Origin: Podospora anserina
Taxonomy: Eukaryota
Assembly (NCBI GenBank): GCA_017654855.1
Contig: CM030334.1
Location: 3,658,001-3,722,000 of the forward strand
Length of the DNA stretch: 64,000 nucleotides
Reading direction: 5' to 3'
Shown in pieces: positions 30,157-60,100 of the stretch (position 1 is its first letter; the number at the start of each line of letters is the position of its first letter). A model generated the notes under the pieces. The model was given only the letters and a program-made list of their open reading frames with translations. It was not told the DNA's origin and did no database searches. The translations under genes were made by a program, and so were the position numbers.

Positions 30157-31695
30157 CTAGTAAGGACACTTCCCACAGTACCCGCACTCGTCTGCCGAAC
30201 AAGCTGTGTAATCGGGCAGCTCCTCCTCATAGTCGTAGCCGTACAGGTTGTCGTGGCTGTACCGATGATCTTCATCGCTGTCGTCCTCGTTGACATCAGT
30301 CTCGGGGTCAAAAGAGTCATGATCAGATCCCTGAGTTTCAGGCTCGCCAACCCCATCATCACTCTCATCTGTCAAGGCCCCACCCTGCAACCCCCACCGA
30401 GCCTTGACTGCATCAGAAAGCGCATCGTTCACATCCGCAAGCCGCTCACGTACTTCTAGCCCGCCAATTCCCGCATACCTCAGCTCCATCTTCTGGTCAG
30501 GCATGTCGGAGACAACCTCGATGATCATATCAATGAGACTCTTGAGCTGTGCAAGCTCAGCCTGGTGATCCAACTCCCAACGTTGGACATCCTCCCTGAC
30601 GTCCTTGATCTGAATATCCGCCTTTTTAAACAGCCCCTGGGTGTGAAAGGCGAGAATGAACGTGGGGGTTTGGGAGACCCATAGACGGGGCAGTTCCTCG
30701 GCAAGATGATCCTTCTTGTCCTTGGTGTAGATGCTACGGGTCTTGAGATCAAAGACTTGAGCTTGCGGGATAAGCTCACCGCCGAATTTGACATTGATGG
30801 TGGACTCGGCTAATGTAGCAGTGGTCTGGGATGCAAGTCCCATGTCAGCTTCAGAGAGTAAATCCGCAAGAGATGTCTGATCCTTGACGGTTGTGGACGA
30901 GGTGCTATTGACCGAGGAAGGGCCTTGAGCATGGGGCTTGATGTATCCATCTGCTTCGAAACGAACTAGGATGCGATGACCACCGAAGGTATATCGAACG
31001 ATGCGTTGGTGCGAGGCCGACCCCTTGACATCAGGCTCCCAGATGGTATTAGCCTCGGGAAAGCTGTGACCATATCCACGGACTCCGGGAATGATCTCGG
31101 TGGGTGTGTTCTCACGTCTCGTGAAGAAGACGGTATTGTGGATTTTTTCAACGAGGATTCGGAACGGCTTGTCTTGCCGGCGAACAAAGCGAAGGAGGTT
31201 GCCCAAGGTGCTTCCACAAGCCACGATATCAACCTCGGGAGAGATGTTGTTGTCCGCCTCCATGGCAGCGATAACACACGGCTCCAATGGGTGCTTCGGG
31301 AATCGGGCGGCGTTTTTGTCTCGGAAGTAAGTCCCATTGTCTTCGTTGAGACGCGACGGAGATGCAACTGGAGCCCACAAAGGTGGCTTGCCTATCGTCA
31401 AGAACAAGCATTCTGTCAGCAACATCTCTGATGCACGGATAACGGCAGATTTACCAGGCACAAGGATCGTTGGTGCGGCTTCCTTCCCCTCAAGCCAGTT
31501 GTATGATGTGATGAGTCTGCAGTCGCGGATCGAAGGTGAGGCGATCTTGCTGTTGAGATTCATATCGAGATCAGATATCTCGATGGTTTGAACCAGGTTC
31601 CCCAATGGCGGAGGAGGAGATGCCTGGGCCTTCGAAGCGTCATCATACTTCCGGTTAGTGTAGCGGCTGCGAGATTTGTACCAAGTCGAAGTCAT
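30157..31695 (-). CDS. Conserved fungal hypothetical protein with Rai1/DXO-like motif order and a C-terminal Cys cluster
   Basis: 512-aa ORF, possibly with an in-frame intron near 31400-31455. Motifs GYGHSFPE, HQRIVRY, VRFEADG, DLKTRS, LWVSQTP and terminal CSADECGYCGKCPY. Confidence 0.75.
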   Translation of the reverse strand: MTSTWYKSRSRYTNRKYDDASKAQASPPPPLGNLVQTIEISDLDMNLNSKIASPSIRDCRLITSYNWLEGKEAAPTILVPGKSAVIRASEMLLTECLFLTIGKPPLWAPVASPSRLNEDNGTYFRDKNAARFPKHPLEPCVIAAMEADNNISPEVDIVACGSTLGNLLRFVRRQDKPFRILVEKIHNTVFFTRRENTPTEIIPGVRGYGHSFPEANTIWEPDVKGSASHQRIVRYTFGGHRILVRFEADGYIKPHAQGPSSVNSTSSTTVKDQTSLADLLSEADMGLASQTTATLAESTINVKFGGELIPQAQVFDLKTRSIYTKDKKDHLAEELPRLWVSQTPTFILAFHTQGLFKKADIQIKDVREDVQRWELDHQAELAQLKSLIDMIIEVVSDMPDQKMELRYAGIGGLEVRERLADVNDALSDAVKARWGLQGGALTDESDDGVGEPETQGSDHDSFDPETDVNEDDSDEDHRYSHDNLYGYDYEEELPDYTACSADECGYCGKCPY

Positions 31696-33339
31696 GGTAT
31701 GGTGTTGGGCAATGGTGAAGATATGGGAAGAAGCGATGCAGCAGAGGGATCAGAATGAACGACGTATTAGTTGAATTTCAATGCAGGAAGGATGCCGAGG
31801 ACAGAGTATAAATGTTGGCTCTCGCTAGTTGACCGGCGACTCGATGCCGTTGCGTTTGCACCTGGGGTGCAGTGCATACCCGTGTTGACTCACACCCCTT
31901 TATTTTTCACAGCGGCCCTTGCCACAAAATAATTGAGACTCTAAAGCAGGTTAAAATGCCTTGAAGGATGGTCCACAGGTCTTTACAGATAGTCAATAGG
32001 CCTTAAAACATAGTTTATAGGCCTTTGAGGATAGTTAATAGGCTTTAGAAGATCATTCAAAGGCCTATGGATTTACTTTCGAGGTATAGTTTATAGTATA
32101 ACATGGGTTAACTTACTTTTGAGTGTCAACTATTTTGTGGTGAGGGTGCTAGGTTCGGCGTGATGAGAGGAAAGGAGCTGGGCTGCAACGTGGGGGAAGT
32201 ACACCCAGACTATCAGTTCGAGCGAAATCCAATGCTGATTCTGGAAGACATACTGCCAAAAATTGAGGAAGATTTCTCTTCCCCTTTTTACATTGACTCC
32301 CCCCTATCTTCCAATGGCCTCAGGCGCATAAGCGCCAACGGAAAATAAAACTTAAAAATAAGAACGGGGCGGCAAAAATAAATTTCGGGATTCTAGTGCC
32401 AATGAGGCATATATGGAGAATGCATTCCTAAAATGCATGATAGTCAACTGCCTAATTCTACTCTTTTGACTGGATAAATACTAACTTTGCCAGCCCGTTT
32501 TCATGATCGTGCTATGCTGCCTTAGTTGAAGATTCGGCTGGGTTTATTAATCCCTGCGGCACAGCGGAACCCCTTAGCCTAGCCTCACCGCGTATTAGAC
32601 AAATATAAGGTTATTTACTCCCTCGAGCCTAGCTATAGATCCTAGATCCTAGATTCTAAATTCCTAAGGATATAGATTCCACTATTATATAACAAAGTGA
32701 TTCATACTATTAAACCAAACTAATCGGTAGTTAACTTTGCATAGAGAGCTATAAGCTTTTATTATATCGTTAGTTCTATATTTCTAATATAAACGTATTT
32801 ATTAATAAATAATAAAACTTAATAAATTACTAAATTATAACTCTCTCTCTAGTTTAAACCTTTATCTCTCTAAACTTACCGACTCCTTTTACGTTTAATA
32901 AAGACAGCGATACTTACTACGTAATAACGAAAAGCCTACACCTAAAAACGCTATTAAAGGAATATTAGTAAGATTTTATACGGACCAATTATATCCTTAC
33001 GGTAGTTAAACACCTTAATTAAAGAACAATTTCGGTTTAACACTAATCCATTAATTCTAAATTTCTATAGTAAGTTAGCCGGAGCGTATAGTAACGTTAC
33101 GCTTCCTTCGAACTATTACTGGGGTTAATTATTATTATTATAAGTTTATTTTACGTTATTAATTTATTTATCGTTTTAAAAGAAGTTATAAACTATAATA
33201 TTATTATTTAAACGGAGAAATATATATTATTTTTATAGGATTAAAAATATAAAAAATATTTGTTATATAAATATATTTAGTCCTTTATACCCTTTTGGTA
33301 GTAAACGAGAAAAAAAATAAAAAAGAGAAAGAAAGCGAA

Positions 33340-36300
33340 AGTTAAAATATTAAATATTTTAAGAGAATAAAAATATTATAATACGTCTTAAATAATAGTT
33401 AAAAACTATTTTACGCCTTTCTACCGTAAAAGTATATATATAGTATTCTAGTAGTAGCTATAATACGTTTTTATTATTATAAGTAATTTAGTGCCTGTCT
33501 TTTCCTAAATTATATAAATAATATACCGGATTACTTAGCTAATTTGGATTTTCTATAGTAGCCGTAACTATTTGGATACGCCCGATATTCGTATTAATAT
33601 AAGCGTTAGTATAGTCGAACGATAGATAGGTAGTAACTGAATTAACATTTATCGTCTGTGTGCAGGATCCCGATGCCGTATCCCAGATCTTGATGGTATT
33701 ATCGTGCGAGCCCGATGCCACGCGCTGGCCGTCCGGCGAAAACGCGACCGACAAGACCGAGCCGCCATGGCCCTCTAACGTCTGTGTGGAGGATCCCGAT
33801 GCCGTATCCCAGATCTTGATGGTATTATCGTGCGAGCCCGATGCCACGCGCTGGCCGTCCGGCGAGAACGCGACCGACAAGACCAAGCTGCCATGGCCCT
33901 CTAACGTCTGTGTGGAGGATCCCGATACCGTATCCCAGATCTTGATGGTCTTGTCGTGCGAGCCCGATGCCACGCGCTGGCCGTCCGGCGAGAACGCGAC
34001 CGACCAGACCAAGTCGCCATGGCCCTCTAACGTCTGTGTGCAGGATCCCGATGCCGTATCCCAGATCTTGATGGTCCTATCGTCCGAGCCCGATGCCACG
34101 CGCTGGCCGTCCGGCGAAAACGCGACCGACAAGACCGAGCCGCCATAGCCCTCTAACGTCTGTGTGGAGGATCCCGATGCCGTATCCCAGATCTTGATGG
34201 TATTATCGTGCGAGCCCGATGCCACGCGCTGGCCGTCCGGCGAGAACGCGACCGACCAGACCGAGCCGCCATAGCCCTCTAACGTCTGTGTGGAGGATCC
34301 CGATGCCGTATCCCAGATCTTGATGGTATTATTGTGCGAGCCCGATGCTACGCGCTGGCCGTCCGGCGAGAACGCGACCGACAAGACCAAGCTACTATAG
34401 CCCTCTAATGTCTATATATAAGTATTCTATTATATTTTTATAACTGGTCCCGTATTAAGCTATCCAGGCTTTTTTTCCTTAAAGATTTTCTTTATTAAGC
34501 TACTAATTAGTATAAATATAAGGATTAATATATATATTTAAAGAGGGGCTTACTTTATTATTTATCTATAGGCTAGAGTAAACCGGTATGTATCGCGAAT
34601 AAAACTTATTAATTACCCCCGATTTTCGCGTTCCTATAGTAATTTTAATTTAATTTTTTAATATTTAATAGTTCGGTATTTATTAGTAGGCCCTCGAGCC
34701 GCCCTATAGTAATAACTTTACCTAATATTATACGGAAAAAACTTAAAACTTTAAATTAATAAAGGTAGCTCCGACGTAAAAACTTATTAATAGACTCGAC
34801 CTTATCGCGGGTAGAGTTATATTTATTTAAATAATTAATTTAATATATATACGAATACCGTACTATAGTTAACGGATCTAGATTAGGCTACTTAATTTAG
34901 TCGATAGGGAATCCAGGAACGCTAAAGCCGTAGATATTACAACGTAGTATATTAATTAAAATTTGTAACGATCGTGAGACGATAGAGCGGTATATATATT
35001 ATATCCCGGAAGGGAAGATTTCCCTAAATACCTTTTAAACTAAAAAGTCTTTAATAGATTAATAAACGAACGTAATAATATAATTTCGGAGCGTTAAAAA
35101 AGAATTATAAAGCCCTACGATTTTTGCTAAAACTTCGCGATTATTAAAGTATCGAGGGGGTATATCTACTAAAGACGGTAATTTATTTAACGTAATTAAT
35201 CGATATATAACCGAAACGACGGTTAATATATTTTTATAAAGCTTAAAGTATTTTAAACTATAGATCTAGCTTATTATTCATTTATAAAGGGTATTTAATT
35301 CGGGCGGAAGTACCGTTAATATTTTTTTAATTTCCTATCCCGAGATACCGGTAAGTTCCTAATAAACTAAGGTTATTTAAAGGAAAGTACTATATACGTT
35401 CGACGATAAATAGGCCCGGATAGTATTTTATATATTATTATTATATTAATTTTATTTCGTTAATAAATCGATTTTAAATTAAATATAATTAATAATAACT
35501 GTAAATATAAATTTTTTATTTAACTTAAAATATAATTTTACTTTTTATATTATATCGTTAAAACCCTTTTTGATATTCGGTTAATTACGATTAAATATAA
35601 TTTATTTAATATTTAAATATATCGATAACGTTTTAATAATAAAATTAATAAATCGGTTTAAATCTCGGGTATATTTATTAAATATATTAATAATTAAATA
35701 GGTATTTTATAAATGCGGATCCTTAAGAATATTAATAAAGATCTTTAATAACGCCTCTTAGGTATTTATATTTTCGAAAAATTATTTCCCTATTTAATCG
35801 TACCTTTACTATACGTACGAAATAAGCGATAATTAATAATTAATAAGAAAGAATATTAGGCCGCGAAGGATAGCCGTAGTGTTATTTATATATATATTAG
35901 TAGCTTAATAGAAGAAAAACGAGATAGTTATAGTATTAGGGATCGACTTTATTAATTTATTAATAATTTTATAAAGTAATATCGTTTTACCTTTATCGGG
36001 GTCGCCTTTAATTTATAGTAGCCGGCTATTTTAATTATTACATTATTATTTAAAATCGTTATTATCGAGGACCTAGTAATACGAGCCTATTAAAAAGCCG
36101 CCTTTAACTTACTCGATATAGCTTTTATCGTTATACGGATCGGTTATTCGGAGACCTTATAGATAAGTATAGTCCTAGAGATCCGTTATATATTAACTAA
36201 TCTTCTAAAGAACGCCTAATTACTATCGAAAGACTTTGATATATTTCTGTACTTTAATAAGTAGGTTATTAAAAGCTATACGTAATTCCTTTATTTTCTT

Positions 36301-37400
36301 AGTAAGATCTTTTAATACTTAAAGACGGCTAGTAAATATAATTATTTTAAACCTCGAAATTAACGCTACGTTAATATCTTTAATATACTATAATTTTTAA
36401 TCCTAACCATTATAGTTAATAGTTTTTCGGAAAAAGTTTTTAGTTTAAATATAGTAAAACCGAATAATATTTTATATTTAAAAATCGATAATAAATTTAT
36501 ATAAATTAATAAAACGCTCCGTAAAGTTACCCTTTAAGTTAAGCTTTATATTTTAAAGTAATAATAATAATTTTATTATAATAAAATAATATATTTATAA
36601 CGTAACGTAAATAAATTTATCCCGGTTCGCTTTTTTAATAGCGGCGGGGTTCTTTAGGAGGAGGAGTACGAGGGATATACTTATTATAACGATAGAGGCG
36701 TATAGTAGGTCTTTAATAATATTTTTAATATAGTTTTCGACCTATTCTATAATTCCGGCGACTTTTATTATAATATCCTAAAAAATAATCTCGTATCTTA
36801 ATAGTATTATACTAACCTTTTTATTTTCTATATACTTTAAATTAAGTTCCGTTATTTTTTTTAATTTCTTTCGACGTACGATCGGATCGTTTTAGGGGAC
36901 TTAATTCGTAATTTTAATATCGTTCGTTTAATTCGACGCTAATTAGGATATAAATAAAATTATATTTTTTTAAATTAACGCGAACGAAATAATTTAAGCC
37001 GGGTTAATAATATACCTTTAATAAGTACTTTAAATAAAAATTATTTATATTTAGTAATTTGATCGGGCTTTTTTTCCTTAAGAGTATCGTAGGCTCTATC
37101 TTAAAGAGAGGTATCCGTAACTAAGTTTTCTCCGATCTTTACTATTTAGCTATTTATTACCGTTTAAGGTACCCTTGCGGCCTTATCGCTAATATTACTT
37201 AGAACGGCTAATGTTTTGTTTAAAGGGGTAGGCGATATTATTAGAGTAGAGGTTTAAGAGGTATTTATCGTTAATTGCGAGAGTAAAGGGGTTACTATAG
37301 TCGATAAAGCGGCTTGCTTAGGGCGAAGAACGGAAATTAAAGTTTATTAATAGGGGAAGGAGGGTTTACCGCTAATCCGTACCTTCTAATGAATTCGCTG
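33340..37400 (-). pseudogene. RIP-inactivated NLR of the NWD/HNWD family (NACHT_N + NACHT + WD40)
   Basis: De-RIP-readable SL*DRAYDTLK (NACHT_N, ~37090), ITDPYNDKSYIE*VKGGFL (~36100-36160), Walker A RLL*IKGDPDKGKT (~35980-36030), WD repeats, and C-terminal NVL*LLLEY (originally VLWLPPEY). Confidence 0.9.
33656..34411 (-). repeat. Six near-identical 126-bp WD40 repeats of HET-E/HNWD type, open frame
   Basis: TLEG(H/Y)GxxV(W/L)SVAFSPDGQRVASGSxDxTIKIWDTASGSxTQ repeated six times, GC-rich, no stop codons. Confidence 0.97.
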
Positions 37401-38089
37401 AGGCGATGCTACTATATATTTCCGGACCGTCCTATGCCTTCGACTTCTCCCGACTCTTTTTTTTTTATTTGAATAATCCAAACCTCTTCCTTGGACTGCT
37501 AGCTATAACCTTCTCGTGTACTTTCGATTAGGGGCGTATTTGTCGCAGTTGTATTAAAGATAGTTAAAGAGATCGACGATGGATTTTTTAAGCAGTTGCC
37601 GCGGAGTTGAAGCCTAACGATATGATGTGGCTGGCTCACGCGCTAATAGAAACTTCCCAAAACGCTTTGAGGCCGCTATCTGCAGGCAGAACTCTGGAAG
37701 GCATCCTCGATAATCGATAGCTACATAAACAACGACATGAAATCACTTCTAATCTCCCTTGCGATCGTTTTAGATAGGCTCCTCAGGAAAAGATACTTTA
37801 AGGTACGCAGTTGGAATAATGTAAAAAGGTAAGCGCAGTCATACCAAGGCCACCAAATCCGTCAGAAAAGGATTTGCTGTGCGGGGCCGAAAGGGAAGCG
37901 TAGTGGCCCGTGCCGTGGCGTCCCTGAAACAGATGCAGGGGTCACCCTCTGTGGGGCGTGGGCCCAGGCCCACTGCCTTGCTCTTCTTCTTGCCTTGCAG
38001 CCAGAACCACTGCCTTTTTCTTCACCAACTCACCAATACAACCACGTATTGCCCACACTTCGTTGCCTCCGACACCCTCTAATATTATC

Positions 38090-38450
38090 GCAGGATGGTC
38101 AGTTCTGAACATCAGATTTCCCTGGAAATGACAGTCTGGGTGGAGAAGGAAACAGTTTCGATGCACGTTGTCACCGTTGTTGCCATCCTTTTCCTACCTG
38201 CTACGTTCATATCGGTAAGGAACTGCCTCACATCTAGCTGCTTGATATCTTCTAATCTTGTTACCAGAAATTCTTGCAAAGTGGAATCATTCAGGTAAAG
38301 GGATCCGAGGAGTTTTAACGGCAGTAGCAGCTGCACACAGGGGCCTTTGCGCTCTACGTTGAGATATGCATCCCGCTAACCGCAATAACGTTATTTGTAT
38401 GGTTTATGGTCAATTATCGAGGAAAGAACAAGTCATTGAGGAATCTGTCG
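38090..38450 (+). pseudogene. C-terminal fragment of a fungal CorA-like membrane protein
   Basis: KETVSMHVVTVVAILFLPATFIS / intron / FLQSGII ... AFALYVEICIPLTAITLFVWF, i.e. two TM helices, interrupted by stops. Confidence 0.55.
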
Positions 38451-39822
38451 GAGGGCACAAGTCAATCGGGTGGTGGACAGGACCGAAACTGTGGTCTAGA
38501 TCTCCCGGTTTCTATAGATTACACATTTTATTCGGGCAAAGGTAAACCTGATTTTCAGAGTCGTTTGCAAGTTACCTACCTTAATCATATTAGTCATATA
38601 TCTCCTCAATGAGACATTGTGATATGATCTCAGGGTGACCAGGTTCCCTCAAGCCATACTGATCTACTGTACTCCAGTGACTGATACTAATAAGTATTTT
38701 GACATCCGCATCAGCATCCCATTGCCTACCTGCTTGAGTAATCTTGCACCGCGCAAAATGAAGAACCTAAGTGTAAAAGCCGTGATATAAAGAACCTGGT
38801 CAGCGAGGGGACTGTAAGTTTCTCTGGCTTTGCAGTGTGTGATACGCAGTCAGGATCATGAACCATGACTCTATAGCAGTAAAATGAAGCTCGGATATCG
38901 GTACTGCATACTAAGTAAGCTAACCACCTCTACCTTATTATCATGTTAGTAACCAAGCTCAAACAAAGGATCAATGATGTTAGGACAGAATCCCAGGCTC
39001 GGCAATAACCTAGAGCAATTATAAGAACTTCAAGATAGTAATTTTACCGTAAAGTTTAATATAGACTAACATCTCCCGTCCTTTAAGTTTCTGACTTTTG
39101 ATAGAGGTCAGGCGGGACCCACTTTACTGCCCCTGAGCCCCTGAACGTCGTTTGTTAATATACCTAAGCTACTCAAATCTTGAACCCCTTCAATCACACT
39201 CTATCCTAGAAAAACTGTCCCAACGTCTTGAACTCAACGACCAGGGCATAGAATAGCACCAACCATCGGTCTTTGTAAACTATCCCTATCCCTAAGCCTG
39301 GGTATCTACCATAAGGCCAAGCTTAGTAGCATTGGAACCCCGCAAAACACACCCCGCACTTCCCTAAATGCCAAGTGCCGCATTCAGGGGTCCAAATAGA
39401 TTAAATAATCAACGTTAGACCTCCCGCAAGGCGTCCGTAATGCCCTAAACCACTAAAGACCGCTAAATGTAAGGTATTCCGCTTTAAACCCGAGATTAGG
39501 CTGCACGCTGAACCTCGCGATGACGGTAGACGGATGACGGGAAGCTTCATGTTTGCGGGGACCCCGCAATTAATTCACCGTACTAAGTCGCGAGCTGGAT
39601 TAGAGAATACTGGGGATGCCTGATGTGCCGACGCGAATACCAGCGTTCTATTAATACAGGAAACTCACGATATCAGAATGGGCTCAAGTCCACCATCACA
39701 CCCTCGCTCATTTGATACCCTATTTCCCTTCGGCTCATATTTTTATGCCAATCCCTCCTCTGTCTTGCATCTTTGAACCCATCCTCAACCTTTTCCGTTC
39801 CACCAAGACCACCACATCCACC

Positions 39823-41090
39823 ATGTCTTCTTGCAACAGCAACAACAACAACAAGAAGATCTGCATTGTTGGTGCCGGCCCGTCTGGCCTAGCTCTTAGT
39901 GCTCTCCTCGAAAAGTAGGGCGGTTGGGACTACGTTATTTATGAAAGCAGTGCTAAGGATGTCCCACCTCGTGGTAGCTGCCTCGATCTCTACCCTGGCA
40001 GCGGTTAAAGAGCGTTAAAGGACGTTAGTGTCTTTAAAGAGTTTAAGAAGTACGCCCGTTACGGTAATACTACTATCTATCGCCTCTTTAGCCATAAGGG
40101 CGAGAATTTCTTTGACTTTAGTGAGGGCCGTAATGCCCCTAAGATCGACCGCTGGGCTTTTAGAAAGGTCCTCCTTAGTGGTATCCCTAAAGAGAAGGTT
40201 TATTAGAAGAAGCTAGTTATTAGTACTACCTGTAACGAGAACGGGTAAATCGTTTTTAATTTTGCTAATAGAACTATTATTTCGGGGTTCGGGCTTATAG
40301 TCGGCACCGATAATACTTAATCTAAAGTACGGTATTTAATAAGAAATCCCTCGTCGATTATTTCCCTTCCGCTCTAGAAAATTTTAGCTACTTAAATATT
40401 AATAACGCTCGATAAGTAACCGACGCGAAGCTATAATATAGTAATAATTTATTTATTACTACTAAAATCCTCTCTAGCGGTCTATATTATAAAAAGATAA
40501 AGGAACTTTACCGTATAAAGTCTATAATCGTTATAGGTAAAAGTATTTATATATTTAATAGTAAATAAGGTAACGGGTATTACCGTATTAATATCGGTAT
40601 TCCTAGCCCCGAGAACTTTACTGACGCCGGTCTCGTCGATATTAAAAATTAAGACGCGTTTAAAAAATACTTTTTAGGAAATAACCTTTTTAACCTTTAC
40701 TCGGATAAAATAAAGGAGATTATTAATTAAAGTTAAGGTCCCTTTAGATTTTAGATTATATATTACTTCCCTATAAATAATCTTAATTAAAAAACTATCC
40801 CGGGCGTAACGTTAATTAGCGATATTATTTATATTATAATACTATTCGTTAGTAATAGTGTTAATTGCGTTATAAGAGATACGATTATCTTTATTAGAAA
40901 GTTAAAGGAATTGGGCGTTAACGAGGAAGTTATTATTGTTTATAAGAGGGAAATGTTCCCTTTCGTTATTAATATTATTACGAGAAGTCTTTAGAGCTAA
41001 AAAATGTTTTTTAAAAAGGAGGCTCTTAAAACCTTTATTAAGGTTATAAGCTTTAGGAAGTTTTTAATTAATACGATTAACTATATTTAA
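39823..41090 (+). pseudogene. RIPped FAD-dependent monooxygenase
   Basis: ICIVGAGPSGLALS, LIVGTDNT*SKVR (originally VGADGAWSKVR) and GVTLISDIIY..FVSNSVNC (originally IGDAAH..PFVGDGVN). Confidence 0.88.
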
Positions 41091-59399: not shown

Positions 59400-60100
59400 A
59401 CCGCCCTGCCCACAAATCGCTTTACTCCTTAACCTTAACCACCCCCTCCTCAACAACCTACTTAACCCCACCCCCCCTAACCCACCCACCATAATCCTAC
59501 ATATACCTCCCCTTCCTATCCTCTCCTTAACCAAAACCTCCTCCTTTTCCACGCCAGCCCACTATATCCCCCCCAAACTCTCCCTATCTAACCCAACCTC
59601 ATACTCTACCCCCGGCTCCAACCAATCTACCCCCGTAAGCTGCACCGACCTTCTTACCTTCCTCTCCCTCCCCTTATCATCCACCTCCTACCCTTTCTCC
59701 GCTATAGCCTTAGGCACAGGCCGCACCTTATTTACACCACCACCCCTCCCAAACGGGGTTAACAACTCAACCGGTATGTCGGGGTATAGAGTCAGGTAGA
59801 ATGCCTCGTCTATATTGCCCCTAATGCGCGTGATCGCGGAGCGGTTAACGCGGAGGGAGTAAGTTTCGACTTTTTAGCGGGAGGGGAGGGCGTGGATTGT
59901 GATTATATGGTTAGTAAGGGCGGAGGGGAGGGATAAGGGGTAGTTAAAGGTAAAGAGGGTAATGGGGTGAGGGACGGTGGAGGTTATAGTAAGGGTTAGG
60001 AGGGGGGGTAGGGAGTAAGTAGTAAAGGAGTAAGTTAGGGGTATAAGGGTAATTTTAATATAGACTTTAGGGGGAGGGGAGGGGGGAGTAATAGTTAAGG
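59400..60100 (-). pseudogene. RIPped hypothetical gene
   Basis: Readable frame LRVNRSAITRIRGNIDEAFYLTLYPDIPVELLNPFGRGG..DWLEPGVEYEVG, with a C-rich 5' and G-rich 3' composition like intact genes in this window. Confidence 0.5.

Follow-up and report, generated by a model that had tools for sequence, protein, structure and literature searches.

On the minus strand of the window, the 64,000-nucleotide stretch of Podospora anserina DNA analysed here, lies a disrupted NLR gene that is almost certainly, judging by its sequence, the NACHT_N-NACHT-WD40 pseudogene NWDp2/nwdp-2. Its 5' coding part (34684..37506; an N-terminal stretch, NACHT_N and NACHT) has been destroyed by RIP: ATA stands in place of the start codon, the Walker A motif has become GDPDKGKT, and the upstream frame (34699-37431) contains 69 stops in 911 codons, with NACHT_N and NPHP3_N still detected by Pfam. 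This part would also include a small intron near its 5' end. A putative 50-nt intron in a het-e-like position (34634..34683), suggested by a frame change and by alignment, has a RIP-altered donor that is retained as GTAAGT in a twin copy of the gene on contig C6. There follow, on the same strand, the pre-WD linker with a cryptic repeat (34412..34633), RIP-saturated as far as the array edge, an array of six tandem 126-bp WD40 units in open frame (33656..34411), recognized by repeat, composition and unit comparison, and a C-terminal tail carrying RIP stops (33350..33655). The 3' flank (32202..33349) has homologues beside nwd6, het-e and hnwd3.

The succession of a NACHT domain and 126-bp WD40 units of high internal conservation places the locus in the NWD/HNWD family, and the presence of NACHT_N without HET in P0001, with no HET domain match in the window, places it in the HET-less NWD subtype; the intact relative P0005 also has NACHT_N. 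At their four hypervariable positions, the units read in order LLHN, SWHN, SLDR, LWHK, LLHN and SLHN. The assignment to NWDp2 rests on the first unit code (LLHN) and on SWHN and SLDR, all of which match Table S4 of Paoletti et al. 2007 (PMC1805685), and on the existence of an unlinked RIP-mutated partner, the C6 copy, which is NWDp1 because its codes SWLK, WQHK and WQHM are those given for NWDp1 in the same table. The published NWDp-1 primers fail to discriminate between the two copies (0/3 and 1/2 mismatches), and the published NWDp-2 reverse primer, read by eye, runs through the Asp-Asn stretch and has the marks at unit bases 81 and 84. The names het-e, hnwd3, het-d, hnwd1, nwd1 and nwd2 were assigned here by domain content and unit codes, that of het-e being also backed by 97% identity to P0154 over exon 1. 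A further locus is presumably het-r, given its repeat type.

The WD40 array differs strongly from the rest of the pseudogene. Tandem Repeats Finder places it at 33653-34413 (period 126, 6.0 copies, 94% matches), and a stop-free frame of 290 aa (34411-33542) includes six Pfam WD40 stretches. Its GC content is 0.612, with 86 CpA+TpG per 756 bp, compared with a GC content of 0.266 and 25 CpA+TpG per 2990 bp in the 5' flank, and 0.264 and 27 per 1095 bp in the 3' flank. With an intact relative as reference, 94 of the 96 scorable Q/H/W/C/M codons of the exon are RIP-hit (7 more are altered otherwise), whereas in the array, where 62 conserved CpA/TpG cells could be scored, RIP has hit 6 (4 more altered otherwise; Fisher P = 3e-33). 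Overall, the array carries roughly 10-19% of the possible RIP marks, while the coding flank carries 98%. These values bear out a first-pass annotation that had remarked on a near-clean WD40 cassette within a RIP-wrecked NLR, and the sharp edges that it set at about 34395 and 33655 are where it placed them. On the 5' side, RIP marks reach base 18 of unit 1 (34394) and about 27 in-register bases are saturated; on the 3' side, the array is clean up to the end of homology at 33653. The same annotation called the array 'near-pristine', which holds in so far as it is largely unmutated, but pristine it is not, as units 1-3 share a C>T at base 13 that turns the His of GH into Tyr, and C>T changes recur at base 81 in five of the six units and at base 84 in four, unit 4 having neither. 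All six units are distinct from one another (4-12 nt). Towards either end of the duplicated segment (32202-32650 and 37400-37950), RIP fades gradually over the outermost ~500 bp, in both copies; the array edges are sharp. Elsewhere in the window, a further GC island (about 0.53), which has not lost all of its CpA/TpG, lies at 59400-60000, within a RIP-saturated block at 40.2-64 kb.

The twin, nwd6 (NWDp1; G000:C6:3355483-3360987), is also RIP-killed in this genome and also has a largely spared array. It is 86-88% identical to the window over 32202-37950, and transitions make up 487 of the 510 differences counted in the 5' part. An excess of C>T/G>A changes, a loss of CpA/TpG and a homologous partner mutated likewise mark the window gene as a RIP-inactivated duplicate; nwdp-2 and nwd6 are RIP-mutated over the 5.75 kb that they share, near saturation in the coding part. 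Transversions between the copies are more frequent in the 3' part (28/1452; 32202-33655) than in the 5' part (23/3532; 34412-37950; P = 0.0001), which suggests a swapped 3' module. The edges of the twin array mirror those in the window, the clean side being 5' instead of 3'. A much less mutated stretch extends ~150 nt into the 5' linker, and the 150 nt ahead of the twin array (L027:5366-5515) keep 15 CpA+TpG, versus 2 at the same place in the window and 0-5 per 150 nt over the next 2.5 kb of the twin. Judging from its sequence, this linker stretch may have come as a tract out of a live allele of nwd6. At the other end, within the array, the last unit (unit 4, L027:5894-6019) carries 8 private transitions.

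Four strain runs were compared over 31300-33781, a stretch that takes in the last unit of the array and none of the others. In each of them one contig covers 31300-32253 with no difference, and the left junction is the same. In addition, every run yielded a contig that crosses the 3' flank free of gaps, at 32/644, 68/594, 114/1171 and 112/1044 differences. Being gap-free marks these contigs as the window's type, since the other four homologous flanks have a 4-bp insertion at 33025, and they would represent differently RIP-mutated alleles of the same pseudogene. Several other features lie nearby or share parts of the locus. At 31916-32149, 52 bp off the unit end, is a 234-bp element that resembles a MITE: its ends are 39-bp inverted repeats, and the genome has about 20 matches to it. 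On the plus strand, a 3' fragment of a CorA-like gene (38143-38609; weak Pfam match, E 0.008) starts right at a terminal-repeat remnant, with no evident 5' part at the other end of the unit. The stretch 38723-40300, within which a possible FAD-binding gene begins, has an 89% identical copy at G000:C2:236593-238172. Finally, a remnant with the het-e/nwdp-2 tail and 3' flank and a single unit fragment is found on contig C2 (L035, G000:C2 ~409000-409860).

We compared 74 units from 10 loci of this genome, and built a tree from the 35 units of the five closest loci, the other 39 being excluded as too distant. The six window units form a single clade (support 95/86), and none is identical to any unit at another locus among the 74. 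The nearest het-e unit to each window unit is 7-14 nt away, and the units of het-d, het-r, hnwd1, nwd1 and nwd2 are at least 28 nt away. All six window units have Ser (TCC) at unit residue 39, via an A>T change, in a GGA-TCC context that occurs in 0 of the 68 other units and, by a genome-wide pattern search, nowhere outside the array; encoded by another codon (TCA), Ser39 also occurs in units of het-d, hnwd1 and nwd2, which are distant from these. Among intact proteins, Ser39 is found in four of the five units of P. pseudocomata P0005, a comparison of residue rather than codon as P0005 is known as protein only, and five het-e-type proteins, with 33 units between them, have it in none.

Further comparisons point to the same affinity. 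A protein search returned three intact relatives (P0003, P0004 and P0005). The twin exon is P0003 plus C>T/G>A changes alone (0/700 codons fail), whereas the window exon contains codons that RIP does not explain, 17 against P0003, 19 against P0004 and 9 against P0005; therefore the two copies derive from distinct lineages, that of the window being nearest to P0005. At unmasked sites, transversions relative to het-e amount to 1.7% in the window and 0.09% in the twin. The tail begins with TINV in the window, as in P0005, and with TLNV/TLNI in het-e and the twin, and P0005 contains GDLVW units resembling window unit 4. In its type (Ser39), the array belongs to the lineage of the gene around it, a signal that comes down to one fixed transversion, Leu8 and the tail residue. 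With the array as query, protein searches gave mostly long unrelated WD40 proteins and two Podospora matches among the 120 listed; with the tail as query, 6 proteins were obtained from 7 candidates, and a P. anserina nwd6 allele with its array was not among them.

How did the array come to be so clean? The first-pass annotation, like Paoletti et al. 2007, had the array rewritten after RIP from live HNWD paralogues, of which het-e is the only close one, with a possible role as a silent store of specificities for them. For nwdp-2 we consider this improbable. Window units do average 12.2 nt from het-e units, and the NACHT of the intact relative is just 57% identical to HET-E; exchange between het-e and nwd6 has been published (PMC12222747) and is visible here; and unit 4, which has neither the base-81 nor the base-84 mark, differs from het-e unit 7 by 7 nt. 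However, het-e has the entire 3' module in common with nwdp-2, from the tail through the 3' flank to the transposon end, at about 3% transversions, so that a general likeness to het-e needs no late import. Moreover, the window units are monophyletic, their private marks are missing from 11 of 11 het-e units, and the other paralogues are at the distances given above. An origin of unit 4 in het-e was judged unnecessary given the P0005 GDLVW units. Thus of the annotation's proposal, the resetting of the array by recombination probably stands, in view of the sharp mirror-image edges, but live paralogues as the source are not supported for this copy, with no identical unit and a single clade; repeats clustering together and apart from functional paralogues are what the annotation itself had said would count against it, and this is largely the pattern obtained. 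A silent donor reservoir likewise finds no backing at the window copy, whose private marks occur in 0/11 het-e units, 0/5 hnwd3 units and none of the units of the five het-e-type proteins; because het-e and hnwd3 units have none of them, donation is not seen in this genome. A live Ser39-type donor could nevertheless exist in another strain.

The pattern that the annotation predicted, near-identity to live units and mixing in the tree, is found at the C6 twin and not at the window, in this one genome. The twin array consists of four units of het-e (Thr39) type, of which units 2 and 3 are 1 nt from het-e units 7 and 8, and in the unit tree they intermingle with those of het-e. A reservoir role would fit nwd6 better than the window copy. 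As a separate observation, het-e units 6 and 8 (L025:4584-4961) read WQHM, a code that strain S lists for NWDp1 and not for het-e, and het-e unit 7 reads SQHK, one residue off the WQHK of NWDp1. That het-e or nwd6 repeats were collapsed or misplaced into the pseudogene by the assembly is scarcely credible: such arrays are hard to assemble (PMC12222747), but the six units differ among themselves and from every other locus, and, according to PMC1805685, the same unit codes were obtained from a different assembly and the array had 2-8 units by PCR in six isolates, a length polymorphism set out in its Table 2.

We lean towards a repeat-limited recombination that reset the array from its own Ser39 lineage and was followed by shuffling in place. 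Damaged units would have been replaced late by units of an unmutated copy of the same lineage, in an exchange confined to the repeats, the donor being either an intact allele at nwdp-2 or an older nwd6 type, neither of which is in this genome. The flanks would by then have diverged, and the short unlinked array may have attracted little further RIP, as PMC1805685 and PMC10787394 describe for short unlinked repeats. Unequal exchange and conversion, which are reported to occur within arrays (PMC2873952), would afterwards have spread a few new marks and reordered the units. Consistent with this last step, RIP marks are common to blocks of units, so copying between units of the array went on once some RIP had occurred: among 78 cells there are 11 hits, distributed 5, 3, 1, 1, 1 (P = 0.00017 if independent, in a clustering test that the sequence-context bias of RIP could inflate). 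Derived variants are common to units, as in concerted evolution, and the unit order differs from that of strain S (Table S4 of PMC1805685, where the S order comes from an older assembly). Counting against a reset from the array's own lineage, a genome-wide pattern search of this P. anserina genome revealed no unmutated Ser39 donor, Ser39 is also encoded by TCA in distant units, and a PCA of populations shows nwdp-2 repeat variation overlapping that of het-e (PMC12222747).

A possible but less probable course is that the original array simply survived, whether through a low susceptibility of short-period tandem arrays to RIP or through inter-unit conversion that is biased to C:G and purges the marks. 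The array's lineage agrees with its own NACHT and tail, a Ser39 donor is absent from this genome, and PMC1805685 leaves open that the repeats are refractory to RIP. Furthermore, the transversion distance between the window and twin arrays (1.6%) is of the order of that in the flanks (0.65% in the 5' part and 1.9% in the 3' part), so the array need not postdate the split of the copies. On the other hand, unbiased copying among damaged units should leave the array with the load of its flanks and could not cut it from 98% to 10-19%, which would call for input from a live copy, biased conversion or suppression of RIP, and survival would have to invoke strong bias or protection. The saturated in-register bases lie at one edge per copy and at opposite ends in the two copies, which would fit recombination tracts better than a protection borne by the array, and unit 4 of the twin was hit by its private transitions within the array. 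On the favoured reading, the array is a by-product of repeat turnover.

A further lead comes from the ends of the unit. The outer ~460 bp of the 3' flank (32202-32661) is the 'R' end of a family of Fot1/pogo-like DNA transposons whose terminal repeat is ~180 bp long, and beyond the 5' coding part a 33-bp remnant of the opposite ('L') terminal repeat (38110..38142, minus strand) is inverted relative to 32202-32234 and 82% complementary to it, the bracketed length being 5941 bp. Both ends of the nwdp-2 unit thus carry inverted terminal repeats, one of them merely 33 bp long. The twin terminates at the same terminal base, and the 33-bp end is absent from it. The terminal motif occurs 38 times in the genome, versus 6 times in a control, and 24 of 30 fetched matches belong to the ~180-bp terminal repeat family (two incomplete). 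A DDE_1 transposase remnant (E 8e-21) lies within one copy, next to its end, after which a reading of the ends as Mutator or hAT was dropped. The Enterprise ends bufo/schoutedenella were set aside on their published description, which gives them no terminal inverted repeats. We found no target-site duplication; the sequences flanking the two ends agree at 6 of 8 bases at best, with no TA on both sides.

Ends of this family lie 3' of nwdp-2, nwd6, het-e and hnwd3, and 5' of het-d, hnwd1, a NACHT_N-NACHT gene, a truncated HET-NACHT gene, an NB-ARC-TPR gene and a SesA-NACHT-WD gene (end positions in G000: C5:716943, C8:737069, C6:3360987, C3:3093693, C5:485050, C6:578946, C7:2850971, C6:3557533 and C6:1491039). 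An NLR-type gene or remnant lies within about 8 kb on the inner side of 14 of 26 ends (the 24 above and two more), a count that includes several stretches picked for their NLR and has no matched control. Tentatively, the Fot1/pogo-type family might move repeat-bearing NLRs of Podospora as cargo and make chimeras of them: nwdp-2 would be a 5.9-kb cassette, het-e, hnwd3, nwd6 and nwdp-2 would have exchanged the 3' module (WD array, tail, flank and transposon end) between them, with the opposite end lying upstream of het-d, hnwd1 and other NLRs. If so, duplicates would arise by transposition and be killed by RIP, and the sensor arrays would stay readable through repeat turnover. Enrichment of TEs near such NLRs has been published (PMC13449251), and a named transposon end bordering several NLR genes would be a concrete candidate for the 'direct mobilization' speculated on there. 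In literature searches and in passages of PMC13449251, its preprint, PMC8092012 and PMC9262711, we found no description of this element as bracketing such NLRs; the supplement of PMC13449251 may cover it.

Several known systems invite comparison. Pack-type elements are gene-carrying non-autonomous DNA transposons, and those of the Fot1/pogo group within Tc1/mariner resemble the nwdp-2 unit in that a host gene lies between inverted terminal repeats; both copies of the unit end at the same base, and the DDE_1 remnant adjoins another copy of the end. The nwdp-2 unit differs in having one end of 33 bp and in showing no target-site duplication; the four strain runs, all with the same left junction, sample no empty site. 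In trypanosome VSG pseudogenes, chicken immunoglobulin pseudogenes and Borrelia vls, all donor-cassette systems, a silent copy likewise keeps variable recognition sequence usable for conversion, but for nwdp-2 we found no transfer into a live gene, and neither selection nor a mechanism dedicated to such transfer has left a sign. Within the family, nwd6 shares with the window copy its boundaries, its death by RIP and its spared array, and differs by its Thr39 units, P0003-type exon and clean 5' edge. The het-e gene (G000:C5 ~717900-722150) shares the repeat clade, tail, 3' flank and transposon end, and differs in being intact, in having a HET domain in place of NACHT_N, and in that its 11 units are without the window marks.

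The closest comparison is with the published NWDp2/nwdp-2 itself. As described in PMC1805685, PMC12222747 and PMC13449251, it too has a RIP-saturated NACHT and flanks, a stop-free WD array, an unlinked RIP partner and the same repertoire of unit residues, and the window represents another allele of the same locus, with the six units reordered and three codes unlike those listed for strain S. Paoletti et al. 2007 (PMC1805685) described NWDp1 and NWDp2 as pseudogenes that RIP had killed but whose WD repeats were intact, and proposed replacement from active loci, an idea of rescue that PMC13449251 restates. The clean array and its rescue by conversion are therefore already in print for this very gene, as the first-pass annotation had supposed for the species, and the finding itself is ordinary. 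What the window adds is that the 2007 argument, by which clean repeats reflect exchange with active loci, is a poor fit to this allele of nwdp-2, whose array retains the mark of its own lineage. The question of why an array free of selection avoids RIP is thereby reopened, and nwdp-2 offers a natural test of RIP on tandem arrays.
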